DNA from: Alphaproteobacteria bacterium
GTDB taxonomy: Bacteria > Pseudomonadota > Alphaproteobacteria > Rhodobacterales > Rhodobacteraceae
DNA length: 62,169 bases
Assembly: GCA_030431935.1 (NCBI GenBank)
Contig: JAUIIC010000001.1
Location: forward strand, 1 to 62,169
Direction: 5' to 3'
Shown here one piece after another: positions 4,532 through 33,455 of the stretch; position 1 is the stretch's first letter, and the number at the start of each line of letters is the position of its first letter. The notes under the pieces were generated by a model, which saw only the letters and a list, made by a program, of their open reading frames with translations, was not told the origin of the DNA and ran no database searches. Both the position numbers and the translations under genes were made by a program.

Positions 4532-6421
4532 ATGTATTCTTGGCTGATCGACCTGCCCCGCGCAGTGAAGCGCGCGATGTTGATAACGCTGGATACGGCG
4601 CTCATTCCCGCATGCCTGTATCTTGCCTTCGTGCTGCGCCTCGATCCCAGCTGGCTGCCGATCTTCCTCGAACGCTCCTGGGCGCTGTTTCCTCTCCTGA
4701 CGGTCTCCGGGATCGCCGTGCTCGTGGTCTGGCGGCTCGACAGCTTCAAGATCCATGCCTTCGAGGCGCGGGCCTCGATTCGCTTTGCCTTTGCCGCGGC
4801 CACGATGGCGGTGATCGCCATGGGGCTCAGCTATACGTTCCAGCTTGGCGTGCCGCGCTCGGTTCCCATCATCTTCGCGGGCCTCTACACGCTTTGCACC
4901 GTCTGCGTGCGCATCGGGGCGCAGGCCTTCTTCGAATGGCTGGCCAAGCGCAGCTCGCGGATGATCCCGGTGGCCGTCTACGGGGCGGGGGCGGCCGGCA
5001 TCCAGCTTGTCTCGGCGCTGCGCCGCTCGCGCGAGGTGACGCCGGTCGCCTTCGTCGACGACAACCACACCCTGCACGGGCTTGTGGTGGCGAACCTGCC
5101 GGTGCGCTCGCCCGCCACGCTTCAGGGCATGATCGCCTCCGGCCGGATCCAGCGCGTGCTGATCGCCATTCCGTCGCTGTCGCGCATCCGCCGCCGCCAG
5201 CTGATCGCCGAGCTGTCGGGGCTCGGGGCCGAGGTCCAGGTGCTGCCCTCCTTCATCGAACTGATGGACGGCCCCGCGCTGGAGGACCAGCTGCGCACCG
5301 TCGATCCCGACGATCTGCTGGGGCGCGAGGCGGTGAACCTCGACATTCCCGACGTCGCCAAGGCCTATGCCGGGCGCAGCGTGATGGTCACCGGCGCCGG
5401 AGGCTCCATCGGGTCGGAACTGTGCCGCCAGCTGGTGTCCTGCGGTCCCGCGCGCGTCGTGCTGTTCGAACTGAACGAGTTCGCGCTCTATTCCATCGAC
5501 GCCGACATGCGCGCCCTGACCGAGGGCACGGGCATCCAGGTGGTGCCGCGGCTCGGCTCGGTCTGCGACCGCGCCCGCGTAGACCAGGTGATCGCCGACC
5601 AGGGGGTCGAGATCGTCCTGCACGCCGCGGCCTACAAGCACGTTCCCCTCATCGAGGAGAACGAGGCCGAAGGCGCCGCCAACAATGTCATCGGCACCCA
5701 GACCGTGGCCGAGGCGGCGCGCGAGGCCGGGCTCGAGCGCTTCATCCTCGTCTCCACCGACAAGGCGGTGCGTCCCACAAACATCATGGGCGCGACCAAG
5801 CGCATGGCCGAACTGGTGGTGCAGGACCTTCAGACGCGCTCGCCCCGGACCAAGTTCGCCATCGTGCGCTTCGGTAACGTCCTTGGGTCATCGGGCTCCG
5901 TCCTGCCGCTGTTCCAGCGCCAGATCGCATCGGGTGGGCCGGTGACCGTCACCCATCAGGACGTGACCCGCTTCTTCATGACGATCCCCGAGGCGTCGCG
6001 CCTGGTGCTCCTGGCCGGCGCCTACGCCGAAGGCGGGGACCATTTCGTTCTCGACATGGGCGAGCCGCGCAAGGTCATCGACATCGCCCGACGCATGATC
6101 GCGCTGGCGGGTCGCACCGTGCGCGAGGAAGGGTCCGAGGACGGCGAGATCGAGATCAAGGTGATCGGCCTGCGCCCCGGCGAGAAGCTGTACGAGGAAC
6201 TGTTGATCGACAACGACAGCCTTGTGAAGACGCCGCACTCCAAGATCCTGCGCGCCGAGGAAAAGGCGCTGTCCCAGATCGAGGTCGCGGCGATGATGCG
6301 CGAACTGAACGCGGCCATCGCCGAAAACGATGCGCCGCGCGTCCGGGCCGCCGTGCGCAAGTGGGTCGAGGGTTACCATCCTCCGGCGGTTTCCACGGAC
6401 GCCGCAAGGCTTGGAACCTGA
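4532..6421 (+). CDS. Membrane-anchored polysaccharide biosynthesis protein, CapD/PglF/WbpM type (UDP-HexNAc 4,6-dehydratase family)
   Basis: 629 aa. It has four predicted N-terminal TM helices and a central Rossmann segment (VYGAGAAG). An extended SDR domain follows, with VTGAGGSIGSEL, AAYKHVP, TDKAVRPTNIMGATKR and VRFGNVLGSSGSV. All are typical of the CapD/PglF family. Confidence 0.85.
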   Translation: MYSWLIDLPRAVKRAMLITLDTALIPACLYLAFVLRLDPSWLPIFLERSWALFPLLTVSGIAVLVVWRLDSFKIHAFEARASIRFAFAAATMAVIAMGLSYTFQLGVPRSVPIIFAGLYTLCTVCVRIGAQAFFEWLAKRSSRMIPVAVYGAGAAGIQLVSALRRSREVTPVAFVDDNHTLHGLVVANLPVRSPATLQGMIASGRIQRVLIAIPSLSRIRRRQLIAELSGLGAEVQVLPSFIELMDGPALEDQLRTVDPDDLLGREAVNLDIPDVAKAYAGRSVMVTGAGGSIGSELCRQLVSCGPARVVLFELNEFALYSIDADMRALTEGTGIQVVPRLGSVCDRARVDQVIADQGVEIVLHAAAYKHVPLIEENEAEGAANNVIGTQTVAEAAREAGLERFILVSTDKAVRPTNIMGATKRMAELVVQDLQTRSPRTKFAIVRFGNVLGSSGSVLPLFQRQIASGGPVTVTHQDVTRFFMTIPEASRLVLLAGAYAEGGDHFVLDMGEPRKVIDIARRMIALAGRTVREEGSEDGEIEIKVIGLRPGEKLYEELLIDNDSLVKTPHSKILRAEEKALSQIEVAAMMRELNAAIAENDAPRVRAAVRKWVEGYHPPAVSTDAARLGT

Positions 6422-6611
6422 CGCGCCCCGGTGACGCAGGGCCAGATTCGGGTTGCGAAGGCGGGGATGGTCGCTTTATGTGCGCGGACAACACAGATGA
6501 TGACCCGAAACGCGCGCCCGCCGGATCAAGCACCCGCATGACACCCTCCGCCCATGACCTGACCCGCCGCCATGTTGCATGGCGGGCCGCCCATCGTGCA
6601 GAGGGCACCGT

Positions 6612-7424
6612 ATGCCGTTGACCGATCCCGCGCAGACACCCGCCGTGCATCCCACGGCCATCGTCGAGGACGGTGTGCAGCTTGGCGAAGGCGTTCGCAT
6701 CGGCCCGTATTGCGTGGTCGGCGCCGGATCCGTCCTGAAGGACGGGGTCGAGCTGCGCTCGCATGTCGTGGTCGAGGGCCGCACCACCCTTGGCGAAGGC
6801 ACGGTCGTTCATCCCTTCACCACGCTGGGCAGCGCACCCCAGCACCTGCGCTACGAGGGCGAGGATACCGCGCTTGTCGTCGGTGCGAACTGCGTGATCC
6901 GCGAACAGGTCTCGATCCACCGGGGCACCGCGCTGGGCGGCGGCGAAACCGTGATCGGCGCCAACGCGCTGGTGATGGCGGCCAGCCACATCGCCCATGA
7001 CTGCCACATCGGCGAGAACGTCATCGTCGCGTCGAACTGCACGCTCGGCGGGCATGTCGTCGTGGGCGACAACGTCTTTCTCGGCGGCCTGGCCGGGGTG
7101 CACCAGTTCTGCCGCATCGGCGCCCATGCCTTCGTCGGCGGCCTCGCTGCCGTCCACAGCGACGTGATCCCCTTCGGCTCGGCCATCGGCAACCGCGCCA
7201 AGCTGGGCGGGCTGAACCTTGTCGGGCTCAAGCGGGCGGGCTTCAGCCGTTCGACCATCAACGACATCCGTTCGGGCTACCGCGATCTCTTCAACGACGA
7301 CGTCGACAGCTTCAAGGAGCGGGTGGCCCAGGTCGCGCAGCGCTATGCCCATTCGCCCGAAGTCATGATGATCGTCGAGTTCATCGGCGCCGACACCAGC
7401 CGCCCCATACTGGGCGCGCGCTAG
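6612..7424 (+). CDS. lpxA: Acyl-ACP--UDP-N-acetylglucosamine O-acyltransferase (LpxA family)
   Basis: ORF 6579..7424, trimmed to the ATG at 6612. It has left-handed beta-helix hexapeptide repeats and LpxA signatures (IHPTAIV-like start, GSAPQHLRYEGE, IAHDCHIG, GGLNLVGLKRAGFS). The helical C-terminal domain is also LpxA-like. Confidence 0.85.
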   Translation: MPLTDPAQTPAVHPTAIVEDGVQLGEGVRIGPYCVVGAGSVLKDGVELRSHVVVEGRTTLGEGTVVHPFTTLGSAPQHLRYEGEDTALVVGANCVIREQVSIHRGTALGGGETVIGANALVMAASHIAHDCHIGENVIVASNCTLGGHVVVGDNVFLGGLAGVHQFCRIGAHAFVGGLAAVHSDVIPFGSAIGNRAKLGGLNLVGLKRAGFSRSTINDIRSGYRDLFNDDVDSFKERVAQVAQRYAHSPEVMMIVEFIGADTSRPILGAR

Positions 7425-7429
7425 GGCGG

Positions 7430-8467
7430 ATGCCTGACCCCCGGTTCTTTCCCGTCCCCGATCCGGTCACGCTGGAGCAGGCCGCGCGCCTGACCGGCGC
7501 GCGCCTGTCCGACGGCGCCGATCCCGCGCAACGGATCACCTCGGTCGCGCCCGTCGACAGCGCCGGCCCGGGCGACGCCGCCTTCCTCGCCAGCCCGTCC
7601 GACACCGCTCGCCTCGACGCCTCGCGCGCGGGGGCCTGCTTTGTCACGCCTGCGCTGGCCGCGAAGCATCCCGGCGGCCGCGCCCTTCTGATCCACGACG
7701 CGCCGCAACGGGCCTTCGTCGCGCTGGCCCGTCACCTCTTTCCCGAACCGCCCCTGCAGCCCGGCATCAGCCCCGCCGCCCATGTCGCCGACGGCGCGCT
7801 GGTGGGCGCGGGCTGCCGCATCGACCCCGGCGCGGTGATCGAGGACGGGGCCGAGATAGGCGCGGGCAGCTGGATTCGCGCCGGCAGCGTCATCTGCGAG
7901 AACGTCGTCATCGGCGAGGGCGCCCGCATCGGCCCCAACGCCACCATCACCCACGCCATCCTCGGCGCGGGCGTCATCGTCCACGCGGGCGCCGCCATCG
8001 GGCAGGACGGCTTCGGCTATGTCCCAGGTCCGGCGGGGCTGGTGAAGGTGCCGCAACTGGGCCGCGTCCTGATCGGCGACGATGTCGAGATCGGGGCCAA
8101 CACCACCATCGACCGGGGCGCTGGCGGCGATACCGAGATCGGGCAGGGCACCAAGATCGACAACCAGGTGCAGATCGGCCACAACTGCCGCATCGGTCGC
8201 TTCTGCGCGCTGGCCAGCCAGGTGGGGCTGTCGGGCAGCGTCACCGTGGGCGACGGCGTCCAGATGGGGGGCAAGTCCGGCTCTGCCGACCACATCACCA
8301 TCGGCGCGGGCGCGAAACTGGCGGCGGGCACCGGGCTGATGCGCGACGTGCCGCCGGGTGCGGTCATGGCGGGCCGCCCGGCGCTGCCGATCAAGGACTG
8401 GCACCGCGATACCGTGAACCTGAAACGCCTGCGCGACCGCCGCCCGACGAAGGACAAGGACCAGTGA
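7430..8467 (+). CDS. lpxD: UDP-3-O-acylglucosamine N-acyltransferase (LpxD family)
   Basis: 345 aa. It has the typical alphaproteobacterial LpxD N-terminus (MPDPRFF...). A long hexapeptide-repeat beta-helix follows (QDGFGY, GRVLIGDDVEIGANTTIDRG, IDNQVQIGHN). It starts 5 nt after the lpxA stop. Confidence 0.85.
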   Translation: MPDPRFFPVPDPVTLEQAARLTGARLSDGADPAQRITSVAPVDSAGPGDAAFLASPSDTARLDASRAGACFVTPALAAKHPGGRALLIHDAPQRAFVALARHLFPEPPLQPGISPAAHVADGALVGAGCRIDPGAVIEDGAEIGAGSWIRAGSVICENVVIGEGARIGPNATITHAILGAGVIVHAGAAIGQDGFGYVPGPAGLVKVPQLGRVLIGDDVEIGANTTIDRGAGGDTEIGQGTKIDNQVQIGHNCRIGRFCALASQVGLSGSVTVGDGVQMGGKSGSADHITIGAGAKLAAGTGLMRDVPPGAVMAGRPALPIKDWHRDTVNLKRLRDRRPTKDKDQ

Positions 8468-9423
8468 AGATCCTCATCACCGGCGCCTCGGGATGCGTCG
8501 GGCGCTACCTTGTCGAGGCGCTGCTGGCCAACCCCGACCATCGCCTCGTCCTCGGCGTGCGCGAGGCCGCCAAGCTCGACGTGCTGTCCGACGCCGACCG
8601 CGCCCGCGTCGAGATCGTGGAATGCGACCTGACCGAACTCGCCGCGCGGCCAGAGGCGTTCGACGGCGTCGAGGCGGGCGTCCTTGTCGCCACCGCCTGG
8701 GGCGGGGGCGACACCTACGACATCACCGTGGGCGCCAACCTTGCCATCGCCGACGCGCTGATCGCCGCGGGTGCGCGCCATGTCCTCTACTTCGCCACCG
8801 CCAGCGTGCTCGACCAGCAGGGCGACCTGTTGCAGGCCGCGGACACCTTCGGCACCGACTATATCCGCGCCAAGTTCCAGCTTGTGCAGCAGATGGAAAC
8901 CCGCGCCGACCGGGCGCGCATCACCGGGCTTTATCCGACGCTGGTGATGGGCGGGCGCACCGCCGCGCCCGCGATCCGCATGTCGCATTTCGCCAACCTG
9001 ATGCACGAGATCCGCCCCTACGCCTGGGCGCTGCGCTTCATCAGCGCCAATGGCCTGTTCAACATCGTCCATGCCGCCGACATCGCGACCGTCACCCGCC
9101 ACCTGATCGAGACGGTGACGGACACGACCGGCAACGCGCGGCTTGTCCTCGGCAACCCCGCCGGCTCGGTGGACGAGATGATGGCCCAGTTCGCCCGCGC
9201 CAACGGCCGGCGCCAGCGCACGATCCTGCGCCTGCGCACGTCATGGGTGGACACGCTGACCCGGGTGCTGCCGATAAACCTGTCGCCCTGGGACCGCTTC
9301 TGCGTCGACCATCCCGACCAGTCGCACCCGGCCGCGGTGAACCCCGCCACCTACGGCCTGCCCGTGGTCATGCCCGACCTCGTCTCGGGCCTCGCCTCCA
9401 TCGGGATTTCCGGACGCGGCTGA
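8464..9423 (+). CDS. NAD(P)-dependent epimerase/dehydratase-family protein (atypical SDR)
   Basis: The GTG start at 8464 overlaps the lpxD stop by 4 nt. ILITGASGCVGRYL is a GxxGxxG dinucleotide fold, and YIRAK is a YxxxK motif. Confidence 0.7.
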   Translation: MKILITGASGCVGRYLVEALLANPDHRLVLGVREAAKLDVLSDADRARVEIVECDLTELAARPEAFDGVEAGVLVATAWGGGDTYDITVGANLAIADALIAAGARHVLYFATASVLDQQGDLLQAADTFGTDYIRAKFQLVQQMETRADRARITGLYPTLVMGGRTAAPAIRMSHFANLMHEIRPYAWALRFISANGLFNIVHAADIATVTRHLIETVTDTTGNARLVLGNPAGSVDEMMAQFARANGRRQRTILRLRTSWVDTLTRVLPINLSPWDRFCVDHPDQSHPAAVNPATYGLPVVMPDLVSGLASIGISGRG

Positions 9424-9493
9424 CGGATTTTGCGTGCCTGCCCTGTCGCCCGCCGTATGCTCGGGCAACGCAACGCCATGGAAAGCGCGCCCG

Positions 9494-10006
9494 ATGCCGC
9501 AAATCGACATTCACCTCGCCGAAACAGACGACGACCACGCCGCGATCCGCGCCTTGTGCCACGACTGGGTCGACTGGCAGCTGCGCACCTTCCCGGACAA
9601 GCACGACAAGATCCTGACCGTGTTCGAGCCGGTACAATACGCCGCCACCCTTGCCGCCCTGCCGCAGATCCACGCCCGGCCCAAGGGCGCCATCCTGCTG
9701 GCCCGGCTGGACGGGGCGCCGGTGGGCTGCGTGATGTATCACGACTGGGAGCCCGGCGTGGCCGAGGTCAAGCGCCTTTTCGTGGCCGAGGCGGGGCGCG
9801 GCCACGGCCTTGGCCGCGCCCTTCTGACAGCGATGCTGGAGGCGATGAAATCCGACGGCTACGCCATCGCACGCTTCAGTTCCGCGCGCTTCCTCACCCA
9901 TGCCCGCGCGCTTTACGAGGCGATGGGATTTCAGGACATCCCGCAGCCGCCCGACTTCCCCGATGCGCTGCGGGACACCGTCTATTTCATGGAACGTCCG
10001 ATCTGA
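9494..10006 (+). CDS. GNAT-family N-acetyltransferase
   Basis: ORF 9434..10006, trimmed to the ATG at 9494. It carries the acetyl-CoA motif A (RLFVAEAGRGHGLGRALL) and a C-terminal YEAMGF segment typical of GNAT folds. Confidence 0.75.
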   Translation: MPQIDIHLAETDDDHAAIRALCHDWVDWQLRTFPDKHDKILTVFEPVQYAATLAALPQIHARPKGAILLARLDGAPVGCVMYHDWEPGVAEVKRLFVAEAGRGHGLGRALLTAMLEAMKSDGYAIARFSSARFLTHARALYEAMGFQDIPQPPDFPDALRDTVYFMERPI

Positions 10007-10180
10007 TCCGGCCCGTTGTCCGGGCGGATGTCGGCCGACGCGCGGCCCGTTAACCCCGGACTCCGCCGTCACCGGCGCCGACGCGATGCCGACGTTTTGC
10101 CGACGTGATGCCGCACCGCGAAAACCCCGGTTTTCCGGTGGGTTAACCCCGATTCGCCGCGCGGGGCGCCGACACGCGGG

Positions 10181-11077
10181 TCACGCCCCGTTTTCCGGCA
10201 CCTCGCGCCCGCGTCCGCCCTCGATCTCGGCATGGGCCAGAAGCAGCACCGCCATCAGCCCGCCGGGTTCCGGCCCGCCCGCCAGCACCTCCAGCATCCG
10301 CCGGTCGAGCCGCAGCACGGGGTCGAGCAGCCGGTCCAGCGCCCGGTATCCTGCCCAGCGCTTTGTCTGCAAGGCCACCGACAGGGTCGGGTGCTTGGCA
10401 TGGAACCGCGCCCCGTTGCGGCCCCGCGCCAGTTCCCGCCGCAGCCGCGCGGCAAGGCTCCGGTTCGCGGCGGGCGGCTTCCAGTGATAGATCGGCGCGG
10501 CCCTCTCGAACCGGGTTTGCAGGGGCCGCCGCATCAGGCGCGCGCAGAACTCGGGGTCTTCCCAGCCATATTCGCGAAAGCCCTCGTCGAACCCGCCCAC
10601 GGCGGTCACATGCGCCCGCGCGACAGAGGCGTTTCCGGTCGGCAAGGGATTGAAATGACGGTCGAAAATCCCCGCAGGCGGCGGGTTCTCCATGTCCTCG
10701 GGCGGGGCCGTGACATCGAGGATCGGCCCCGTCACCAGCCGGTCGTCATGGCCCGCATGATGCGCCAGGTGGCGCGCCAGGAAATCCGGCTTGATAAGCG
10801 AATCGTCGTCGACAAAGACCAGGATGCGCCCCTTGGCCATCCCGATCGCCCGGTTGCGCGCCGTCGACGGCCCGGCGTTTTCCGGCAGCGCGACATAGTG
10901 AAGGTTTGGCGCGGCCAGCCGCGCCATCACGGCGTCGGTCTCGGGGTCGGGGCCGTCGCTGACCACGATCACCTCGAAGGCCGCGTCGGTCCGTTGCCCC
11001 AGGAACAGCGGCACCGCCACCTCCAGCACCGCCGCGCGGCGGTAGGTCGGGACGATGAAACTCGCCTCGGGCGTCAT
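10181..11077 (-). CDS. Family-2 glycosyltransferase (possible polyprenyl-phosphate sugar transferase, ArnC/DPM1-like)
   Basis: 298 aa. SFIVPTYRR...EVIVVSDGPDP...LPENAGPSTARNRAI...ILVFVDDDS is the classical GT2 N-terminal half with a DxD motif. It starts 19 nt downstream of the aminotransferase gene. Confidence 0.75.
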   Translation of the reverse strand: MTPEASFIVPTYRRAAVLEVAVPLFLGQRTDAAFEVIVVSDGPDPETDAVMARLAAPNLHYVALPENAGPSTARNRAIGMAKGRILVFVDDDSLIKPDFLARHLAHHAGHDDRLVTGPILDVTAPPEDMENPPPAGIFDRHFNPLPTGNASVARAHVTAVGGFDEGFREYGWEDPEFCARLMRRPLQTRFERAAPIYHWKPPAANRSLAARLRRELARGRNGARFHAKHPTLSVALQTKRWAGYRALDRLLDPVLRLDRRMLEVLAGGPEPGGLMAVLLLAHAEIEGGRGREVPENGA

Positions 11078-11096
11078 GGCGCCGCCCCCCGCGCGC

Positions 11097-12197
11097 CTAG
11101 CCGGAAAAGCCCTGCACGGCGTCGATCACCTGCGCGACCTCGTCATCGGTCATGTAGGGATGCGACGGCAGGCACAGCAGGGTGTCGGCATAGACCTCGG
11201 TGTTGGGTAGCCCGCCCGGCGCCGTCCGCGCCCCGGCAAAGGCCGGCTGCCGGTGGATCGGCTCCTTGTAATAGGCCACGGAAGGCACGTCGCGGGCGGC
11301 CAGGTGCTCTGCCAGGGCGTCCCGGGCCTCGCTGCGAACGACATAGTAGGCCCAGCAGGGATCGCTGCCCTCGGGCGGCGCGGGCAGGGTCACCTTGCCC
11401 GCCATTCCGGCGGCATAGCGCGCCGCGATGGATCGGCGGCGCACCAGCTCGTCATCGAAAATCGCCAGCTTTCGCAACAGGATAGCGGCCTGCATCGAGT
11501 CGAGCCGGGAGTTCGTGCCGACCATCGTGTGCCGCCCCTCGGACACCCCGTGGTTGGCGATGATCCGCGCCCGCTCGGCGATGCCGGGGTCGGCGGTGAA
11601 CATCGCGCCGCCGTCGCCATAGCCGCCCAGCGACTTCGAGGGATAAAAGCTCGTGCCCGCCGCATCGGCGAAGCTGCCGGCGCGCTTGCCGTCCAGCGTG
11701 GTACCAAAGCTCTGCGCCGCGTCGATCAGGAAGGGCAGGCCATGCTGCGCGCAGACCGCCCCCAGCGCCGCGTAATCGGCCGGCAGGCTGAAGAGGTCCA
11801 CCGCCATGACCGCGCCCGGCTTGCCGCCCGCCGCCTTCACCATGGCGATGGCTTCGGCCAGGCTGCCCGCGTCCATGTTCGCGGTGGCAAGGTCGACGTC
11901 CACGAAGACCGGTTCTGCCCCGATCAGCGCCACCGCCTCGGCGGTCGCCACGTAGGTCAGCGAGGGCACGAACACCACGTCCCCCGGCCCCACGCCCACC
12001 GCGCGCAGAAGGATCTGCAATGCGTCGGTGCCGTTGGCGCAGGCCACCGTATGTGCCACGCCCGCATAGGCCGAAAGCGCCGCCTCCAGTTCCTGAACCT
12101 CGGGCCCGTTCACGAAACGCCCGTGGTCGAGAACGGCTGTCACTGCAGCCGTCAGCCCGGGTTCCAGCGCATCGCGCTGGCGCCCGATATCCAGCAT
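11097..12197 (-). CDS. DegT/DnrJ/EryC1/StrS-family PLP-dependent sugar-nucleotide aminotransferase (GnnB/ArnB/WbpE-like)
   Basis: ORF 11097..12209 starts with TTG. The ATG at 12197 gives MLDIGRQRDAL..., the usual DegT N-terminus. The motifs GPEVQELE, NGTDAL, the active-site-Lys region SFYPSKSLGGYGDGG and NSRLDSMQAAIL are all present. Confidence 0.85.
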   Translation of the reverse strand: MLDIGRQRDALEPGLTAAVTAVLDHGRFVNGPEVQELEAALSAYAGVAHTVACANGTDALQILLRAVGVGPGDVVFVPSLTYVATAEAVALIGAEPVFVDVDLATANMDAGSLAEAIAMVKAAGGKPGAVMAVDLFSLPADYAALGAVCAQHGLPFLIDAAQSFGTTLDGKRAGSFADAAGTSFYPSKSLGGYGDGGAMFTADPGIAERARIIANHGVSEGRHTMVGTNSRLDSMQAAILLRKLAIFDDELVRRRSIAARYAAGMAGKVTLPAPPEGSDPCWAYYVVRSEARDALAEHLAARDVPSVAYYKEPIHRQPAFAGARTAPGGLPNTEVYADTLLCLPSHPYMTDDEVAQVIDAVQGFSG

Positions 12198-12287
12198 CCT
12201 GATCGTCAAGACGAATGTCCCCGTATGTTTCCGCCGTCTTAGCGGCAGTCGCGGGACGGTTCCAGAGGGCGTGTGCCGGGAAGCGCG

Positions 12288-13313
12288 TTATTCGCCGGCC
12301 CGCGCCATGGCGGCGATGTTGGGCGACAGGCGGCTGCGCTGGGTGTCCACGTCGGCCAGCGCGCGCAGGACGTTCAGACCTTCTGCCACGCTGGCGCGCG
12401 GGGTCTGGCCCGTCGCGGCGCAGTGCAGGAAGTGCTCCAGCTCGGACGTCAGCGGAAGCGTCTGGGGAATGGGCACGTATTCCGGCTCGGCGCTTTCGAA
12501 CTTGATGTCGCCGCCATCGTTCCAGACCTTGTGATTGTAGATCGCCAGCTTGCGTTCCCACGGCTCCAGGTCGTCGAACACGGCCATGGCCTTGTCGCCG
12601 ATCACGGTGAACTTGCGCTCGCGGTTCGGGGCGAGGCGCGAGATGAAGGTGTGCGACCGCGCGCCCGAGGAGAAGACCATGTGCAGATGCGCAAAATCGG
12701 GGGCGTCGGTGATCATCGCCGCGCCTTCCAGGTGCGTCGAGACCGGCATTTCCCCGGTGATCGCGAACAGAAGCGACAGGTCGTGCGGGGCGATGTCCCA
12801 CAGCGCGTCGGTCTGGACAAAGAACTTCCCCAGCCCGATCCGGGTGGAATAGACGTAGCGGATGGTTCCAAGGACGCCATCCTTGACCATCGCCTCCAGC
12901 GCCTCGAAGGCGGGATGAAAGCGCAGGACGTGGCCGGTCATCGCCACGACGCCCTTGCGCCGGGCCGTCTCGACAATCGCGTTGGCGCCCGCCACTTCCA
13001 GCGCCATGGGCTTTTCCACAAGCAGGTGCTTGCCGGTTTCCATGACCGCGAGCGATACCTCCACATGGCGATCTGCGGGCAGAGCCAGCACGACGGCGTC
13101 GATCTCGTCGCTCTGGATCATCTCCTTTGGCGTCATGGCCTTGCAGCCGTTCGCCTCGGCGGTGGCACGCATCCGCTCCGGGTCGTTGTCGGCCACCGCA
13201 GCCAGTGCACCCAACGACTTGAGCGTGCGGACATGGTTCGAACCCCAGTCGCCGCAGCCGATCACGCCCGCCCGCAGGCGGTGCCGGTTTTCAAGTCGTA
13301 TCAGTTCGGCCAT
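12288..13313 (-). CDS. Gfo/Idh/MocA-family NAD-dependent oxidoreductase (GnnA/WbpB-like sugar-nucleotide oxidase candidate)
   Basis: 341 aa. The N-terminal Rossmann segment is GVIGCGDWGSNH and the EKP motif is LLVEKPMA. It is the first gene of the minus-strand oxidoreductase-aminotransferase-GT2 unit. Confidence 0.75.
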   Translation of the reverse strand: MAELIRLENRHRLRAGVIGCGDWGSNHVRTLKSLGALAAVADNDPERMRATAEANGCKAMTPKEMIQSDEIDAVVLALPADRHVEVSLAVMETGKHLLVEKPMALEVAGANAIVETARRKGVVAMTGHVLRFHPAFEALEAMVKDGVLGTIRYVYSTRIGLGKFFVQTDALWDIAPHDLSLLFAITGEMPVSTHLEGAAMITDAPDFAHLHMVFSSGARSHTFISRLAPNRERKFTVIGDKAMAVFDDLEPWERKLAIYNHKVWNDGGDIKFESAEPEYVPIPQTLPLTSELEHFLHCAATGQTPRASVAEGLNVLRALADVDTQRSRLSPNIAAMARAGE

Positions 13314-13580
13314 GAATGACTGCCTTCCGCACCCCAGGCGTTCGGCGGTTCGTCTAGACGACGACGCGCGTTGTGGAAAGCCTATAGGTGGGGATATGTC
13401 CTTGAAAGCGGATTCTCGCTAAATCTTGGGCAGGATGCAGGGCCGCAACACCAGTATTGCCGGACTTCCTGCGCCCCCGGGCCGGTCTTGGCGTCACCTT
13501 GCCGAGATCGCGGCTTCTCTGACGGCGGAAAACGCCCTAGGTGTAGGCGCCAACCCGTTTCAGACAGGCCGGGCGACCCG

Positions 13581-14717
13581 ATGTACCTGATCCAGCGCCG
13601 GATACTGGCGAAAATGCTGTCGCAGACGCTCTTCGTGTTCTGCTTCGTCGGCGTGATCGTGACCACCACGCAGGTGCTGAACCAGGTGTTCCGCCTGATC
13701 GACGCGTCGTCGAACCTGCTTGTCGCGCTGGAAATGTTCGCCTTTCTCATCCCCACGATCACGGTCACCGTCCTGCCGTTGGCCTTCCTGATCGCCTGCA
13801 TCAACGTGCATGACCGCATGGACGAGGACCGCGAGACGGTGATCCTGTCCGGCACCGGCGCGCACCCGGCCTTCATCCTGCTGCCGGCGGGCGTGCTGGC
13901 GGCGGCGCTGTCGGGACTGGTGCTGGCCATCAGCCTCTACGTCGAGCCCTGGGGCAACCGGATGGGCAGCGACATCAAGAACGCCCTGACCTTCGACGCT
14001 CTCAAGATCATCGCCGGCAACGGGGTGCTGCGCGAGGTGCAGCCGGGCCTTTTCATCCGCGGCGGCGGCTATGACGAGAGCGGCCAGATCGACGGGCTCT
14101 TCATCCTCGACCGGCGCGCGGCGGACGAGGAGGTCAGCTATGTCGCCGAGCGCGGCGCCTTCTTCGAGACCGAGGCCGGCGTGATCCTTCGGCTCTATGA
14201 CGGGTCGATCCAGATCCGGGACGCAGACGGGCAGACCGTGCACAAGGTGCGCTTCGGTCGCTACCAGGCCGAGCCGAGGACCCTGTTCGAGGAGCCGTCG
14301 GGCCAGTCATACCGCCCGCGCCAGACCACCACGGCAGAACTTGTCCGGATGGTCGCCGAGGAGGACAACCGGCAATACACCATCAGTTCGATGCGCAAGG
14401 AGTTGATCCGGCGCTGGACCGACTGGCTTTACCCGCTTGTCTATTTCGCCATCGTTGCCTTTCTCGTGCTGCGCACGCGGCCCTCGCGCGAGGGCGCGCG
14501 CTGGCGGCTGCCGGTGGCGGTCCTGACCGGCTTCGTCATAAAGGCGGGGGGGCTGGTTCTGCTGGGCAGCGCCGGCACCAGCGGGGCGGCGGCGACGGCC
14601 AGTTTCGCGATGCCCGCGGGTGTGGTGGCCGGGCTTCTCGCGCTGGCCTTCCTGCAGGCCACGCGCGGGCGCCGGCCCCGGGTCCGCAGCCCTGCCGGCG
14701 GGCCAGCGCCGGCATAG
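13581..14717 (+). CDS. lptF: LptF/LptG-family (YjgP/YjgQ) permease, first of a pair
   Basis: ORF 13371..14717, trimmed to the ATG at 13581 (MYLIQRRILAKML...). The topology is three TM helices, a large periplasmic beta-jellyroll-like insert and three further TM helices, as in LptF/G. Whether it is the housekeeping copy or a paralogue cannot be told from this window. Confidence 0.7.
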   Translation: MYLIQRRILAKMLSQTLFVFCFVGVIVTTTQVLNQVFRLIDASSNLLVALEMFAFLIPTITVTVLPLAFLIACINVHDRMDEDRETVILSGTGAHPAFILLPAGVLAAALSGLVLAISLYVEPWGNRMGSDIKNALTFDALKIIAGNGVLREVQPGLFIRGGGYDESGQIDGLFILDRRAADEEVSYVAERGAFFETEAGVILRLYDGSIQIRDADGQTVHKVRFGRYQAEPRTLFEEPSGQSYRPRQTTTAELVRMVAEEDNRQYTISSMRKELIRRWTDWLYPLVYFAIVAFLVLRTRPSREGARWRLPVAVLTGFVIKAGGLVLLGSAGTSGAAATASFAMPAGVVAGLLALAFLQATRGRRPRVRSPAGGPAPA

Positions 14718-14805
14718 GCGCGCCAGGGCGGGCAGAGTTGCCATTGCGGCCCGCCACCGTTAAGCGAAACCGGGGGGCACTTGCGGCCGCCGGACAGGTC
14801 TGGAC

Positions 14806-15972
14806 ATGGGCTATCGCACGATCTTCTGGTATTTTTTCCGGCAGCATATGGCGCTGACCGGGCTGGTGCTGGCGTGCCTGTTCTTGATCGTGTTCCTCGG
14901 CCAGTTCGCCGAATTGTCACGTCACCAGTCCGAGGCCGCGGGCTGGACGGCGATCGAGACCATGACGCTGTCGCTCTACCGCTCGCCGGTGCTGATGCAG
15001 GCGATCCTGCCGCATGTGATGCTGATCGCGTCGGCGCTGGCGGTGGCGCGGGCCAGCCGCCGGCTGGAGGTGACGATCCTGTTGCAGAACGGGCTTTCGC
15101 ATCTGAGAATCCTTCTGCCGGTCGCGTTGTCGGGCGCGGTGTTCGGGCTTGGGTACACGCTGGTGGCAAGCCCGCTGTCCAGCTACGCCTACAACGCCTC
15201 GGAACGCGCGCTGACCGAGCTTCTGGCGACGGCGCCCGATCCGGACCAGCGCAACCCGCGCGAGATGATGCTGCGCGACGAGACGGGCGCGAACTACCTG
15301 CTGATCGAACATGTGGCCGAGGATGCCCGCACCCTCTACGGCGTTCTGGTCTACCGGGTCGATCCGCGCCACAGCCTGCGCCAGAGCATCGAGGCCGAGC
15401 GCGCGGTCGCCACCGATACGGGCTGGCGGCTGGAGGGCGCGCGCGAACTGTTCCGCGCCCCCGACCTGGCCGACGAGGAATCTGTTCGCGCGACGCTGGT
15501 GTTCTCGCAGCGGGCGCTGGCGCAAAGATACGAGCGTGAAGAGGTCGCCTCGTTCTTCGCGCTGCCCGAAAAGATCGCGCTGGGGCAGATCGTGGGCGCG
15601 CCGGTGCACGAGTTGCAGGTGCAGTACTACTGGCTGGCCGCGCTCCCGGTGTTGCTGGGCGGGATCGCGCTGATGGCCGGGGCGATGGTGATGCGGCCCA
15701 TGCAGAGGGGCGGCTGGAAGGGCGATGCGGCGCTGATCCTCGGCGCGGCGTTCACGATCTACACGGTGTCGACGGTCCTCGACGCCCTGGGCACGCGCGG
15801 CGTGGTCGATCCGCTGGTGTCCACGGGGACGATCCCGGTGCTGTGCATCCTGGCCGGGCTGGGCGCGGTCTGGATAAAGCGCGGTGGGCCGTGGCGGATG
15901 CGGCAGGCAATGAACGCGCGCACCGCGCCGGCCGTGGCGCCGTCAGACGATCCCGCTGGTGCGGCGGGCTAG
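14806..15972 (+). CDS. lptG: LptF/LptG-family (YjgP/YjgQ) permease, second of a pair
   Basis: 388 aa with the same 3TM-insert-3TM layout (MGYRTIFWYFFRQHMALTG...). It is adjacent to and co-directional with the first copy. Confidence 0.7.
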   Translation: MGYRTIFWYFFRQHMALTGLVLACLFLIVFLGQFAELSRHQSEAAGWTAIETMTLSLYRSPVLMQAILPHVMLIASALAVARASRRLEVTILLQNGLSHLRILLPVALSGAVFGLGYTLVASPLSSYAYNASERALTELLATAPDPDQRNPREMMLRDETGANYLLIEHVAEDARTLYGVLVYRVDPRHSLRQSIEAERAVATDTGWRLEGARELFRAPDLADEESVRATLVFSQRALAQRYEREEVASFFALPEKIALGQIVGAPVHELQVQYYWLAALPVLLGGIALMAGAMVMRPMQRGGWKGDAALILGAAFTIYTVSTVLDALGTRGVVDPLVSTGTIPVLCILAGLGAVWIKRGGPWRMRQAMNARTAPAVAPSDDPAGAAG

Positions 15973-17644
15973 GGCGGTGCCCGGGCAGGCACCAACGGCC
16001 GACGCGGCCTCGGCCCTGTCGCGCGGCTGGCAGGCGGCGGTGGCACGCCCCGTTCTTGCAATCCTGACGCTGGTGATCCTGCAGCACGGGCTGACCATCG
16101 GCCTGAAGGACCTGTGGTTTTCCGACGAGGTCCGCCACGGCGACGTTCTGCGCAACCTGCTCGAGGGCGGAGACTGGCTGGCGTTGAAGCTGAACGGTGC
16201 CTTCTATCCCGACAAGCCGCCGCTCTATTTCTGGTATCTTGGCGCGCTGGCGCTGGTTTTCGGCTCGACCGCGCCCTGGGTGCTGTATGTCGGGCTGGCG
16301 GGCACGGTCCTGATGCTGCTGCTGGCCACGCATCACATGGCGCGGCGGATCACCGGCGACGATGAACTGGCGCTGATCGCCGTGCTGATCCTGGCCAGCG
16401 GCTTCTACTGGCTGGGCCTGACCCATTACGCGCGCATGGACATGATGTTCGCCGCCGCCATCGCGCTGGCCTGGACACAGGTCTGGCGGGCGCTGGACGG
16501 GCCGGTGAACCGGCGCGCGATGCTCTGGGCCTTCGGCTGGATGGCGGTGGCCGCGATGATAAAGGGGCCGGTCGGGCCGATGCTGCCGCTTCTGTCGCTG
16601 GCGGGCTGGGCGCTTTGGCAGCGCCGGGCGGCCGATCTGCTGGACCGCTCGGTGCTTGGAGGCGTGCTCTTGCTGGCGGGGGTGATCGGTGTCTGGGCGG
16701 GCGGCGTCGTCCTGGTGGCGGGGCCCGAGTTCTTCGCCCATCTCTTCCAGTCGCAGATCGTCGACAGAGGGCTGAACCGGGGCGGCGGCGGGCTTTGGGG
16801 CTGGCTGCGCTATGGCCTGACACTGCCGCTGGTGTTCTTGCCTTGGACGTTGCTGTTCCTGGTGCCGCGCGGCGCCAGCCCCCTGCCGGAGCAGTGCGGC
16901 ACGGCGTTTCTCTGGCTGACGGCGGGGCTCGGGGCGCTGTCGCTGTCGCTGGTCTCCGAAAAGCACGAATACTACCTCGTGCCCCTTTTCGTGCCGCTCG
17001 CGATCCTTGCGGCGGGACGGTACCGGACGTTGGGCGCGGGCCGGCTGCGGCTGTTCTGGGGCCTGGCGGTCGCGGTGTCGGTGTCGTTGGGGGCGCTCTT
17101 TGTCGTTGCACCGCGCCTTCTGGATCTGCCTGGGGTCGATCTGGGCGACTATGGCCCGCTTCTCGGCACGCTCGCGCTGCCGGGGGTGGTGCTGGCGGCT
17201 GGCGCCATGGCGGTCTGGGTGCTGCGGCGGCACGCGCAGGCGGCCCTTCTGGGCTGGGCGGGCCTTGTCTCGGTCTTCGGCGTGGTGCTGGCGGTCTCGG
17301 TCCTGCCGCCGGTGAACGCGGTCCTGAGCCCGCGCGGCGTGGCCGACGCCATGTCCGCGCATGTCGCGGCGGGGCACGCGCCCGGGGCTTTCCTCGGGGG
17401 CGATGGCACGCTGGCCTATCACATGGGACGCCCCTATGCCGATCCCTGGTCGTCGGCGGGGTTCACCGCATGGCTCGACGCGACGCCGCGCGCGGTCGCG
17501 GTGCTTGGCGCCGACGACTGGGCCCAGCTGGCCAGCGGCTATCCTGGCGTGGGCATCGTCGAGTGCACGCGGCTGGCGGGCCGGGCGCTGGTGATCGTGG
17601 CGCGCCCCGCGCCAGAGGCAATCAGGGAGTGCGCCGCGCACTAG
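15959..17644 (+). CDS. ArnT/PMT-like GT-C family membrane glycosyltransferase (GT83/GT39-like)
   Basis: Multi-TM protein of 561 aa. The N-terminal periplasmic loop motif DEVRHGDV...YPDKPPLYFW, followed by many TM helices (MIKGPVGP), is typical of ArnT-type lipid-linked sugar transferases. There is no ATG near the 5' end, so the start is taken as the GTG at 15959. That start overlaps the lptG stop by 14 nt and is uncertain. Confidence 0.7.
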   Translation: MRRARAVPGQAPTADAASALSRGWQAAVARPVLAILTLVILQHGLTIGLKDLWFSDEVRHGDVLRNLLEGGDWLALKLNGAFYPDKPPLYFWYLGALALVFGSTAPWVLYVGLAGTVLMLLLATHHMARRITGDDELALIAVLILASGFYWLGLTHYARMDMMFAAAIALAWTQVWRALDGPVNRRAMLWAFGWMAVAAMIKGPVGPMLPLLSLAGWALWQRRAADLLDRSVLGGVLLLAGVIGVWAGGVVLVAGPEFFAHLFQSQIVDRGLNRGGGGLWGWLRYGLTLPLVFLPWTLLFLVPRGASPLPEQCGTAFLWLTAGLGALSLSLVSEKHEYYLVPLFVPLAILAAGRYRTLGAGRLRLFWGLAVAVSVSLGALFVVAPRLLDLPGVDLGDYGPLLGTLALPGVVLAAGAMAVWVLRRHAQAALLGWAGLVSVFGVVLAVSVLPPVNAVLSPRGVADAMSAHVAAGHAPGAFLGGDGTLAYHMGRPYADPWSSAGFTAWLDATPRAVAVLGADDWAQLASGYPGVGIVECTRLAGRALVIVARPAPEAIRECAAH

Positions 17645-17662
17645 GCGCGGTGGGCGTGGAAC

Positions 17663-18412
17663 ATGGCGGATGCACGCTGGCACAAGGTCTACCTGGCGGA
17701 GATCCACGATCTCTATCCCGGGATGCAGCCCGGGGCCGAGGCCCTGCGCGCCGTCTTTCCGCAGGCCGCGCGCGACCGCGTGGCCTGGTCCATCGTGCCG
17801 AACTGGCAGGATCGCCTGGCGTTGACCGGCCACCCCCAGGCGGCGGCAGAGCTTGCCGCCCTGCCCGGAACGCCGGTCCTGCATGGCTGGACCCACAGCC
17901 TTGGCCCCGACTGGATCAACTGGCTGTTCTACGGCCACGACAACCGGTCAGAGTTCCTGCGCCTGTCCGAGGCCGAGGCCGGCGACCGGATCGCCCGTGG
18001 GCTGGCCGAGTTCCGCGCCGCACTCGACGTGACGCCGCGCTGGTTCTGCGCGCCGCGCTGGCAGTTGGGTGCGGGTGGCGCGGCGGCCCTGCGCAAGGCC
18101 GGGTTCGCCGGACATCTCTCGGGCGCGGGGATCGAGGTCTACGGCGAAGGCAGGGTGCCCTTGCCGGCGCTGAACTTCGACGAGGGCGAGCGGGGCTGGA
18201 AACAGGCGCTGGCGCGGCTGGCGCGGGCGCCCAGGGCGCGGCGGCTCTTGTCGCGCGGCACGCCCTTCCGGCTGGTCATCCATCCCGACGACCTGCGCTT
18301 TCCGGCGGTGCGGGCGGACCTGGAACGCTGCGTCGCGGCGATGGAGGCCGACGGCTGGCGGCCGCTCGGGCTTGACGAGATGCTGGCGCTGTGGCGACAG
18401 GTGCGTCCATGA
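17663..18412 (+). CDS. DUF2334-like protein (predicted polysaccharide-deacetylase-fold enzyme)
   Basis: 249 aa. The pattern IHDLYP...SIVPNW...LHGWTH...EF...RWFCAPRW...VIHP matches my memory of the DUF2334 / putative deacetylase family. No signal peptide is present. Confidence 0.55.
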   Translation: MADARWHKVYLAEIHDLYPGMQPGAEALRAVFPQAARDRVAWSIVPNWQDRLALTGHPQAAAELAALPGTPVLHGWTHSLGPDWINWLFYGHDNRSEFLRLSEAEAGDRIARGLAEFRAALDVTPRWFCAPRWQLGAGGAAALRKAGFAGHLSGAGIEVYGEGRVPLPALNFDEGERGWKQALARLARAPRARRLLSRGTPFRLVIHPDDLRFPAVRADLERCVAAMEADGWRPLGLDEMLALWRQVRP

Positions 18413-23376: not shown

Positions 23377-23444
23377 GCCCCGCCTATAGACCGCGCTGCG
23401 GGGTTTCGCCAGAAAGGAGGAACGGGCAAGGAGGAGGACCTGCG

Positions 23445-23882: not shown

Positions 23883-23931
23883 CCGTGGCGCGCCCGGCGG
23901 CCCCCGAAAGGCGCGCCGGCGGATGGGGCGA

Positions 23932-25962: not shown

Positions 25963-25982
25963 CTTGGGGCCTCGTTGTCGGG

Positions 25983-27194: not shown

Positions 27195-27265
27195 GTGATC
27201 CTCCCCGGCGCCGCGCCGCTGGCCCGTTTCGACCGTCTTGCAGCGCCCTTCGAGTATTATTGACC

Positions 27266-27277
27266 AACCGTTCGGTT
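27266..27277. promoter_or_regulatory. Inverted repeat AACCG-TT-CGGTT in the P450 / paaI divergent promoter region; candidate TetR(PaaR)-type operator
   Basis: Read directly (ttgaccAACCGTTCGGTTtatgc). The same ACCG-NN-CGGT core recurs upstream of paaJ at 35716..35727. Confidence 0.4.
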
Positions 27278-27313
27278 TATGCAAACTCGAACGCGACAGG
27301 GAGGACACCGAAG

Positions 27314-29091: not shown

Positions 29092-29096
29092 GCGCG

Positions 29097-29693: not shown

Positions 29694-29724
29694 CCCGCGC
29701 ATCGTTGCAGGCGGCGCGGCGCGT

Positions 29725-31550: not shown

Positions 31551-31557
31551 GGGCGTC

Positions 31558-33064: not shown

Positions 33065-33076
33065 GTCCTTCTCCTC

Positions 33077-33448: not shown

Positions 33449-33455
33449 GGCAGGC

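Follow-up and report, generated by a model that had tools for sequence, protein, structure and literature searches.

GnnA/GnnB chemistry, which supplies UDP-GlcNAc3N for lipid A containing 2,3-diamino-2,3-dideoxyglucose (GlcN3N), has been known since 2004, and GlcN3N-containing lipid A is chemically more stable and usually a weaker TLR4 activator. In A. ferrooxidans a Gfo/Idh/MocA oxidoreductase (GnnA, structures 7bvj and 7bvk) is followed by a DegT aminotransferase (GnnB) and genes for lipid A acyltransferases are linked to the pair. According to published work, GlcN3N lipid A occurs in Brucella, Bartonella, Mesorhizobium and Phyllobacterium, and gnnA/gnnB homologues from Mesorhizobium and Phyllobacterium have already been named (PMC5644692, PMC7663294, PMC8036547). 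WbpB/WbpE from P. aeruginosa and WlbA/WlbC from Bordetella also oxidise and then transaminate C3'', but they act on a uronic acid and use an oxidoreductase of another subfamily. Further systems for comparison are the Arn (ArnA/B/C/D/T), Lgm (Bordetella) and Flm/NaxD (Francisella) pathways, with deacetylases of the CE4 or YdjC type, as well as GpgS/GpgD/GpgF from P. aeruginosa, where GlcNAc is transferred onto a lipid and then deacetylated, leading to GlcN-phosphatidylglycerol (PMC12713373).

The locus described here lies in a window of 62,169 nucleotides, the whole stretch of DNA that was analysed (Table 1). As originally predicted, it contains three co-directional genes encoding a Gfo/Idh/MocA oxidoreductase, a DegT aminotransferase and a glycosyltransferase (GT2a), all divergent from lptF; the ORF list and a GC3 screen confirmed exactly the limits that had been given, with a third-position GC of 0.86–0.87 against 0.44–0.50 at position 2 in the three ORFs. 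The genes are separated by 78 bp and 19 bp and no terminator-like site was found between them (the single one, compared to 2.0 expected, sits within the oxidoreductase ORF), so that an operon is likely as judged from the DNA sequence. For lptF the ATG at 13581 (378 aa) is the probable start and agrees with the gene call in close relatives; the TTG at 13371 is unlikely, and the shared control region would therefore comprise about 267 bp. No sigma-70 consensus was found in this intergenic region.

Table 1: Features of the locus with coordinates in the window.
Feature	Position	Strand	Remarks
lpxA	6579/6612-7424	+	NCBIfam equivalog, 329 bits (cut-off 226)
lpxD	7430-8467	+	NCBIfam equivalog, 374 bits (cut-off 207)
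Extended-SDR/NmrA-like protein	8464-9423	+	Pfam Epimerase/NAD_binding_10
GNAT	9434-10006		
Soluble GT2 (GT-A), GT2a	10181-11077	-	298 aa; Pfam Glycos_transf_2 (E 1e-22) and Glyco_transf_7C
DegT aminotransferase	11097-12209	-	370 aa (366 aa from ATG 12197); Pfam DegT_DnrJ_EryC1 (E 1e-98)
Gfo/Idh/MocA oxidoreductase	12288-13313	-	341 aa; Pfam GFO_IDH_MocA (E 4e-24) and C-terminal domains
Divergent intergenic region, oxidoreductase gene/lptF	13314-13580	.	Read from sequence; putative control function
Packed divergent operon	13581-22579	+	lptF, lptG, ArnT-like GT-C, DUF2334, LpxB-related (TIGR03492), membrane GT2/GT21, 246-aa protein, second LpxB-like
ArnT-like GT-C	15977-17644	+	NCBIfam ArnT, E 2e-24, 86 bits (cut-off 567)
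DUF2334 protein	17663-18412	+	Weak match to GpgD model, 53 bits (cut-off 280)
Membrane-bound GT2 (GT2/GT21)	19598-20587	+	Weak matches to PpgS and ArnC models

The SDR encoded after lpxD shows weak PDB matches to sugar-nucleotide epimerase-like proteins and its gene is conserved beside lpxD or, in other genomes, beside GT2a. A WbpM-like dehydratase is also encoded within the block. The last five genes of the divergent operon overlap at start and stop by 4–11 nt. Its two LpxB-like proteins are homologous to each other (hhalign 96%, E 3.5e-9), whereas their similarity to LpxB itself is very faint (E 0.003–0.03), and the 246-aa protein shows a faint GNAT similarity. The gene order of this operon is kept in eight other loci (L007, L066, L087, L088, L090 and L096–L098).

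The assignment of the oxidoreductase as GnnA, one of two readings that had been proposed, is supported by sequence, profile and fold. Using the single sequence as query (phmmer), GnnA from A. ferrooxidans (7bvj) was the top PDB match over the full length with 108 bits, and a profile of 12 sequences again placed it first (134.6 bits), followed by the next unrelated family with 105 bits and by WlbA with 83 and 63 bits. A Foldseek search with the AF2 model (pLDDT 84.8) gave GnnA structures 7bvj/7bvk on ranks 1–5 (E 9e-27 to 7e-26, TM 0.79/0.86–0.89, rmsd 2.3–3.5 Å) and the first other match at E 1.7e-23. The enzyme shows the two-domain Gfo/Idh/MocA fold with the Rossmann motif GxGxxG (19–24), the lysine-containing EKP (100–102) and D173...H177 (D-x3-H), all of them invariant in 12 orthologues. 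Among characterised Gfo/Idh/MocA enzymes it is nearest to GnnA from A. ferrooxidans, the only GnnA with biochemical characterisation, but as the identity is only 28–30% the margin over other families is moderate; the copy described here has 341 aa with short terminal extensions. Judged by profile score, the nearest curated NCBIfam function is UDP-GlcNAc 3-dehydrogenase, represented by an archaeal model (NF040723) matching over the full length with 159 bits, which is below its cut-off of 450; the equivalog threshold was reached by none of the models for the pair. Orthologues with 40–57% identity are found in Brucella, Bartonella, Mesorhizobium and Phyllobacterium. In a genome scan the best 80 of 595 relatives came mainly from Mesorhizobium, Nitratireductor, Hoeflea, Bartonella, Brucella/Ochrobactrum, Phyllobacterium and Aureimonas, while the others of these 80 belonged to two MAGs of Rhodobacterales or to a few distant phyla. 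A non-systematic literature search found no direct assay of any GnnA from the alphaproteobacterial clade.

The aminotransferase likewise fits the GnnB role that had been suggested for it. It is a DegT-family PLP enzyme according to its Pfam match and the motif SFYPSK (187–192), which aligns with the lysine motif of WbpE and of the Brucella enzyme 4qgr and whose lysine we take to be the Schiff-base lysine. Among PDB entries 4qgr scored highest (345 bits), followed by 8e75 (285), WbpE (283), DesV/QdtB with lower scores and ArnB (126–131), and 4qgr is 94.6% identical to the product of the gene adjoining the gnnA orthologue in a Brucella locus (L059). The phylogenetic placement proposed as a check in the original prediction was performed as a neighbour-joining tree calculated without bootstrap support: the DegT protein is sister to the GnnB-like Brucella clade, with WbpE and 8e75 outside and ArnB far away, and thus groups with 3''-aminotransferases encoded beside gnnA and neither with WbpE nor with 4''-aminotransferases. 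On the ArnB equivalog model it reached 149 bits compared to a cut-off of 631.

The nearest counterparts of the pair are alphaproteobacterial homologues (MAFF_RS12135/MAFF_RS30880 from M. loti and the Brucella pair including 4qgr), with 45–50% identity over the full length for DegT and congruent trees for both genes, although their hosts are Rhizobiales and the host here belongs to the Rhodobacterales. The DegT orthologue lies directly downstream of the oxidoreductase gene in Brucella, Bartonella, Phyllobacterium and Hoeflea; the oxidoreductase is thus paired with a 3''-aminotransferase gene and occurs in taxa with GlcN3N lipid A. The original prediction had also stated that gnnA/gnnB are located beside lpx genes. 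This holds for five related genomes, in four of which the pair adjoins lpxA-lpxD (L066, L087, L007 and L090), while in the fifth (L098) it is found beside lpxD with an oxidoreductase identity of only 51%. It does not hold for the Rhizobiales loci examined, where no lpx genes were found beside gnnA/gnnB: the Phyllobacterium genes lie apart from the lpx cluster, and so do those of Brucella and Bradyrhizobium according to a passage in PMC5644692 citing Sweet et al. 2004. Compared to the A. ferrooxidans pair, the genes described here differ in their predicted co-transcription with a GT2 gene and in being divergent from lptFG.

The third gene of the unit does not seem to belong to this chemistry. 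In GT2a no hydrophobic or membrane segment and no match to the ArnC model (PRK10714) was found, and its AF2 model (pLDDT 93) resembles K4CP, WrtF, AvpGT, RmlT, TarP/S and ppGalNAcT; its 50 best fold matches include no structure of the GtrB, DPMS or ArnC type. By its modelled fold GT2a is an ordinary soluble GT-A glycosyltransferase. The family is narrow, comprising about 45 full-length homologues at an identity of at least 39% before a sharp fall. Its genes are found within or beside the DUF2334/LpxB-like module in L095–L098, with an MsbA-like ABC gene immediately before them in L096–L098, and have neither an oxidoreductase nor a DegT gene nearby in L095–L097. As the pair also occurs without GT2a in L007, L090 and every Rhizobiales locus, GT2a is not an obligate partner.

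Taken together, the oxidoreductase and the aminotransferase probably represent a GnnA/GnnB-type pair supplying UDP-GlcNAc3N for GlcN3N lipid A, with GT2a outside that chemistry. The analysis shows how the genes are arranged, the families to which they belong, their closest relatives of solved structure, the predicted folds and the conserved linkage; from these we infer the substrates and products as well as where the sugar ends up, as follows. The candidate GnnA would oxidise C3'' of UDP-GlcNAc with NAD+ and the resulting 3-keto compound would be converted to UDP-GlcNAc3N by the candidate GnnB, a transamination that depends on PLP and an amino donor. LpxA and LpxD, encoded 1.7–5 kb away, are likely users of this product; N-acylation by both would lead to a lipid A backbone with 2,3-diamino-2,3-dideoxyglucose and amide-linked acyl chains in this Paracoccaceae-related host. 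LpxA is nearer to the E. coli enzyme than to the GlcNAc3N-selective one from Leptospira and looks generic, and its sequence therefore gives no sign of an amino-sugar preference. GT2a, a putative metal-dependent enzyme, probably transfers a sugar onto lipid A-core or another lipid-linked acceptor at the cytoplasmic face and may belong functionally with the neighbouring lptFG-DUF2334-LpxB-like module.

The pair might instead make UDP-GlcNAc3N mainly for a surface glycan such as core, O-chain or capsule, perhaps acylated by the GNAT and transferred by GT2a, with lipid A keeping GlcN. DegT and GT2a are tightly coupled in three lineages, with a spacing of 19 bp here, a 1-nt overlap in Anianabacter and 15 bp in Meinhardsimonia, where the adjacent oxidoreductase gene is absent, and this coupling leaves room for a glycan destination. 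Moreover, archaeal and Pseudomonas routes to 2,3-diacetamido sugars share the first two steps, as reflected by the NF040723 match and the WbpE similarity, and both the GNAT and the WbpM-like dehydratase are encoded in the same block. We nevertheless regard this destination as unlikely, because GT2a and the pair occur without each other, the GNAT is confined to the source species and the linkage that recurs is that to lpxA/lpxD. A WbpB/WbpE-type route from UDP-GlcNAcA to UDP-GlcNAc3NA for an O-antigen of the mannosaminuronic-acid type could be suspected from the similarity of DegT to WbpE (43% identity, 283 bits), but we give it hardly any credence: the match of the oxidoreductase to the WlbA/WbpB type covers only the N-terminal Rossmann part (50–83 bits) compared to the full length of GnnA, WbpE and 8e75 fall outside the clade formed by DegT and the Brucella enzyme, and the block contains neither a UDP-GlcNAc 6-dehydrogenase nor a 2-epimerase nor a WbpD-type acetyltransferase, that is, no equivalents of WbpA, WbpI and WbpD.

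The second reading of the original prediction was an Arn-like carrier-lipid route, in which the GNAT acylates the sugar, GT2a transfers it to polyprenyl phosphate, the DUF2334 protein deacylates it and, after flipping, the GT-C delivers it to lipid A. All Arn parts had been thought to be present. This is true for the GNAT, the ArnT-like GT-C and the DUF2334 protein, and a deacylase function of the latter is plausible since GpgD, for which deacetylation of lipid-GlcNAc has been proven, belongs to the same family (PMC12713373), but not for the GT2 of the operon or for DegT, which are not ArnC-like and not ArnB-like, respectively. DegT is of the 3'' type, the oxidoreductase belongs to Gfo/Idh/MocA and no ArnA-type SDR or formyltransferase domain is encoded in the block, so that none of the three gene products matches its Arn counterpart; unlike in the Arn, Lgm and Flm systems, the candidate deacetylase is a DUF2334 protein. 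The GT-C gene is not conserved with the rest, as among the other loci it is seen again in only two, L066 and the distant L097, the latter without the pair, and is absent from L007, L087, L088, L090 and L098, and the GNAT gene is missing from all other loci except L066. The Arn reading thus fails on these points and we consider it highly improbable, even if the weak PpgS/ArnC match of the membrane-bound GT2 makes an Lgm/Flm-like sub-route via that enzyme conceivable. With the Gpg system the block shares the weak GpgD match, but the partner transferase is of GT2/GT21 type instead of GT4 and there is no UPF0104 flippase. A non-canonical lipid A line, in which LpxC, LpxB, late acyltransferases or WaaA are replaced or supplemented by the DUF2334 protein together with both LpxB-like proteins, the membrane-bound GT2 and the 246-aa protein, is suggested by the order deacetylase, LpxB-like, GT2, possible acyltransferase, LpxB-like, MsbA and GT2 beside lptFG, divergent from gnnA-gnnB-lpxD and conserved as far as L098. 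It appears very unlikely given the faint LpxB similarity and the occurrence of the module without lpxA/D or gnnA/B nearby.

This module, consisting of lptFG, DUF2334, LpxB-like, GT2, the faintly GNAT-like protein, LpxB-like and MsbA and ended by GT2a in other genomes, is the only novel element of the locus, and in the sources consulted we found no explanation for the combination of DUF2334, two LpxB-like proteins, GT2, MsbA and GT2a. It is a tentative idea, and a rather doubtful one, that gnnA-gnnB(-GT2), lpxA-lpxD-SDR and the divergent operon(-MsbA-GT2a) form one conserved supercluster for an undescribed lipid A or inner-core branch. In such a branch, a further hexosamine, which could be GlcNAc3N itself, might for instance be attached to a precursor of lipid A at the cytoplasmic face, followed by deacetylation by the DUF2334 protein, re-acylation and extension by the two LpxB-like enzymes before export via MsbA/Lpt.

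With a GnnA/GnnB pair of known type next to an ordinary soluble GT2, our findings on the oxidoreductase and DegT most likely represent a re-annotation and not new chemistry, and as this chemistry has long been described the gain lies in annotation and taxonomic range. To our knowledge, the lipid A structures described so far from Rhodobacterales (Rhodobacter, Paracoccus) have a GlcN backbone and we know of no report of GlcN3N lipid A in this order. As had been anticipated, the amino-sugar function is not evident from standard annotation, which provides generic gene names only. If the assignment is correct, genes labelled only as ‘Gfo/Idh/MocA oxidoreductase’ and ‘DegT aminotransferase’ would obtain a specific function, and the Paracoccaceae-related lineage and its relatives (Anianabacter and others) would make GlcN3N lipid A.

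The three co-directional genes of the original prediction, an oxidoreductase of the Gfo/Idh/MocA type, a DegT aminotransferase and a GT2 reading divergently from lptF, were borne out at exactly the predicted limits by an ORF listing combined with a third-position GC screen and by Pfam. The intergenic gaps are 78 bp (oxidoreductase/DegT) and 19 bp (DegT/GT2). No terminator-like site was seen between the genes in a scan of 9900–13700, and the promoter and terminator scan of this interval gave nothing above shuffle expectation. The window has a GC content of 69%, and as mechanical ORFs overrun true starts in such high-GC sequence, coordinates from a raw ORF list are unreliable. For lptF, whose likely start is ATG 13581 with TTG 13371 being disfavoured, the overrun amounts to 70 codons (13371–13580), and for the GT2/GT21 gene to 54 arginine-rich codons (19436–19597). 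Three long N-terminal extensions, on lptF, on the GT21 gene and on a '531-aa' ORF, were rejected as artefacts, and a set of minus-strand ORFs on the left flank proved to be spurious high-GC ORFs, since the third-position GC screen places the real genes there on the plus strand.

Features of the lipopolysaccharide-related block, ordered by window position
Feature	Position	Strand	Location	Family evidence and remarks
WbpM-like dehydratase	4532-6421		left of the three genes	
lpxA	6579-7424	plus	left of the three genes	above NCBIfam equivalog cut-off
lpxD	7430-8467	plus	left of the three genes	above NCBIfam equivalog cut-off
extended SDR	8464-9423	plus	left of the three genes	
GNAT	9434-10006		left of the three genes	
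GT2, 298 aa	10181-11077	minus		Pfam E 1e-22
DegT aminotransferase, 370 aa	11097-12209	minus		Pfam E 1e-98; 366 aa with ATG at 12197
Gfo/Idh/MocA oxidoreductase, 341 aa	12288-13313	minus		Pfam E 4e-24
lptF, lptG			right, start of operon	
ArnT-like GT-C	15977-17644		right-hand operon, between lptG and DUF2334	NCBIfam ArnT E 2e-24, far under cut-off
DUF2334	17663-18412		right-hand operon	
LpxB-related protein	18409-19605		right-hand operon	passes TIGR03492
membrane GT2/GT21	19598-20587		right-hand operon	
246-aa protein	20577-21317		right-hand operon	faint GNAT similarity
421-aa protein	21314-22579		operon end	second LpxB-like protein

The best solved relative of the oxidoreductase is 7bvj/7bvk, according to its PDB title the 'UDP-N-acetylglucosamine 3-dehydrogenase GnnA from Acidithiobacillus ferrooxidans', and this was the result of a single-sequence search (108 bits over residues 13–318), of a profile of 12 orthologues (134.6 bits, with the next unrelated family at 105) and of Foldseek. 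WlbA reached 83 and 63 bits in the profile search, in the N-terminal half only. Using the AlphaFold model (pLDDT 84.8), Foldseek ranks 1–5 were all GnnA chains (E 9e-27 to 7e-26, TM 0.79/0.86–0.89, rmsd 2.3–3.5 Å) and the next match followed at E 1.7e-23. As the identity to the A. ferrooxidans enzyme is only 28–30%, the link to GnnA is moderate rather than close. Among curated NCBIfam functions an archaeal UDP-GlcNAc 3-dehydrogenase comes nearest, matched over the full length with 159 bits and under the cut-off of 450. The protein carries the Rossmann motif, the EKP lysine and D173-x3-H177, all of which are invariant among the orthologues.

For the DegT protein the PDB ranking is led by 4qgr from Brucella abortus (345 bits), followed by 8e75 (285), WbpE (283), the other 3-aminotransferases DesV (266) and QdtB (223), and ArnB (126–131). 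Since 4qgr shares 94.6% identity with the gene adjoining the gnnA orthologue in a Brucella locus (L059), it represents the Brucella enzyme in the gnnB position; a literature search for TIGR03492, 4QGR and 8E75 gave nothing usable. In an NJ tree the DegT protein of the window and its Rhodobacterales orthologues are sister to a Rhizobiales clade with the Brucella enzyme while WbpE and 8e75 are located outside both clades, and the oxidoreductase tree has the same shape, both being distance trees without support values that include partial PDB sequences. The proposed placement relative to GnnA/GnnB, WbpB/WbpE and ArnB falls on the GnnA/GnnB-type side, with ArnB far by bit score and WbpE outside in the distance tree. 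The lysine motif SFYPSK (187–192) aligns with that of WbpE.

The identical oxidoreductase is encoded in GCA_046290315.1 and several read-archive assemblies, and a 97% identical copy in a Paracoccaceae MAG (L066). From the 595 relatives found in a scan of one genome per species, the best 80 belong mainly to Mesorhizobium, Nitratireductor, Hoeflea, Bartonella, Brucella/Ochrobactrum, Phyllobacterium and Aureimonas (identity 40–57%), the remainder of these 80 coming from two MAGs of Rhodobacterales and from a few distant phyla. A GlcN3N lipid A backbone is reported for Brucella, Bartonella, Mesorhizobium and Phyllobacterium, among other genera, and the Mesorhizobium and Phyllobacterium relatives have already been named gnnA, with M. 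loti gnnA being MAFF_RS12135 (319 aa) and gnnB MAFF_RS30880 (PMC8036547, PMC7663294, PMC5644692). By tblastn the oxidoreductase orthologues of Brucella, Bartonella, Phyllobacterium and Hoeflea have a DegT orthologue directly downstream; the two genes lie apart in Mesorhizobium, in agreement with the literature. Our literature search, which was not systematic, found no assayed enzyme from the alphaproteobacterial GnnA/GnnB-like clade.

The main support for a GnnA/GnnB pair comes from its linkage to lpxA and lpxD together with the known biochemistry of LpxA, whose substrate in GlcN3N organisms is UDP-GlcNAc3N (Sweet et al. 2004, as cited in later papers, PMC5644692 among them). The pair adjoins SDR-lpxD-lpxA or lpxA-lpxD in four related genomes, namely L066, Anianabacter salinae (L087), a JGI contig (L090) and a Rhodobacteraceae MAG (L007, 63% identity), and in a Pseudomonadota MAG with an oxidoreductase identity of only 51% (L098) gnnA-gnnB-lpxD is transcribed divergently to lptF-lptG-DUF2334 and the other genes of the right-hand module. 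A WbpB/WbpE-type uronic-acid route is argued against by the missing WbpA/WbpI/WbpD-type partners, as neither a UDP-GlcNAc 6-dehydrogenase nor a 2-epimerase or a WbpD-type acetyltransferase is found in the block. The LpxA of the window carries no signature of GlcNAc3N preference; its sequence is that of a generic LpxA, nearer to the E. coli enzyme than to the one of Leptospira, which is GlcNAc3N-selective, and it is 59% identical to LpxA from canonical bamA-skp-lpxD-fabZ-lpxA-lpxI-lpxB clusters in alphaproteobacteria of other orders. In the window lpxA and lpxD adjoin each other with no fabZ, lpxI or lpxB beside them and are followed by the conserved extended-SDR gene (6579–9423), and the same lpxA-lpxD-SDR group stands alone in Meinhardsimonia xiamenensis (L091). 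With GnnA as top match, the DegT clade including the Brucella enzyme and the lpxA/lpxD linkage, the suggested GnnA/GnnB identity is supported for the oxidoreductase and the DegT protein, and the best reading of these two genes is as GnnA/GnnB orthologues that would supply UDP-GlcNAc3N for GlcN3N-type lipid A.

The alternative was a pathway following Arn logic, with an ArnB-like transamination, N-acylation by the GNAT, an ArnC-like GT2, deacylation by DUF2334 and transfer by the ArnT-like GT-C. This reading is not supported for the operon, as no gene of the three resembles the Arn component assigned to it: the DegT protein scores 149 bits on the ArnB equivalog with its cut-off of 631, and an ArnC-like identity of the GT2 is argued against by its predicted soluble GT-A fold, by the lack of a match to the ArnC model and by the lack of any hydrophobic segment. 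Its best NCBIfam match is EpsD (144 bits, cut-off 370), and its predicted model (pLDDT 93) resembles soluble GT-A enzymes whose acceptors are glycans or polymers (K4CP chondroitin polymerase, WrtF, AvpGT, which the sequence file lists as PglI, RmlT, TarP/TarS and ppGalNAc-transferases). Among the compared loci the GNAT is confined to this species and L066 and the GT-C to the window species, L066 and L097; the GT-C suggests an optional periplasmic modification of lipid A or core. The deacylation of a lipid-linked amino sugar by DUF2334 does receive real support, as GpgD, by which P. aeruginosa deacetylates GlcNAc-phosphatidylglycerol (PMC12713373), is a member of this family. With the adjacent membrane GT2/GT21 weakly resembling HpnB/HpnI, PpgS and ArnC, a step in which GlcNAc is put onto a lipid and then deacetylated is plausible for the right-hand operon, and it would not require the three genes.

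The GT2 family is narrow, with about 45 full-length proteins at at least 39% identity followed by a sharp drop in score. A member follows DegT in Anianabacter and Meinhardsimonia. In a 'Deltaproteobacteria' MAG (L096), L097 and L098 an MsbA-like ABC exporter gene immediately precedes it at the module end, with no Gfo or DegT gene nearby in L096 and L097, and the copy in an alphaproteobacterial MAG (L095) is some 5 kb past the MsbA-like ABC gene, beside the SDR. As its company in L095–L098 is the DUF2334/LpxB-like module, the GT2 belongs with this module and has just come to lie behind gnnB in this lineage. Judged by its model it is a predicted soluble glycosyltransferase, linked to an LPS-associated module that is conserved, and the simplest inference from the msbA and lptFG company is a cytoplasmic-face GT2 step on lipid A-core.

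The right-hand operon is tightly packed, with overlaps of 4–11 nt among its last five genes. This five-gene module (17663–22579) is conserved also in L007, L087, L088, L090 and L095–L098, where it mostly adjoins lptFG and, in distant genomes, then an MsbA-like ABC exporter and the GT2 family. The 421-aa and LpxB-related proteins are homologous (hhalign 96%, E 3.5e-9), LpxB is the weak best PDB match of both, and the two are paralogues. No characterised orthologue of any module member was found. The near-identical NCBI assembly L001 (GCA_046290315.1, JBKAGI010000025.1) has missing or fragmented gene calls for three of these operon genes, those of the GT-C, the LpxB-related protein and the GT2/GT21, which points to assembly frameshifts or recent pseudogenes; the window and read-archive contigs have all three in intact form.

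The WbpM/PglF-like membrane UDP-GlcNAc 4,6-dehydratase lies beside a 334-aa protein with a DTD motif and no family match, whose real gene is at about 2907–3911 on the minus strand, the '531-aa' ORF being extended artefactually at its N-terminus. As only this species and L066 have the dehydratase and the 334-aa protein, these are probably O-antigen genes. In the rest of the window, with its genes for phenylacetate catabolism and peptide transport, a formate-dehydrogenase-like complex and clpPX, no further LPS genes were found. Rrf2 and peptidase M20 genes directly flank the LPS block in Anianabacter and are located at 35.8–37.7 kb in the window; paaX, a thioesterase, an aldehyde dehydrogenase-MaoC dehydratase fusion, a P450, a ligase, paaABCDE and a thiolase lie between (22534–35759), which suggests that the phenylacetate cluster is an insertion relative to Anianabacter. 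Among the peptide-transport genes (39300–40754, minus strand) a protein of 484 aa is encoded whose C-terminal part is a Hint domain (Pfam Hint_2, E 9e-46).

The chemistry assigned here to the oxidoreductase and the DegT aminotransferase is already known and it is the lineage that would be new for it, as to our knowledge a GlcN3N lipid A supply of this kind is unreported in this lineage.
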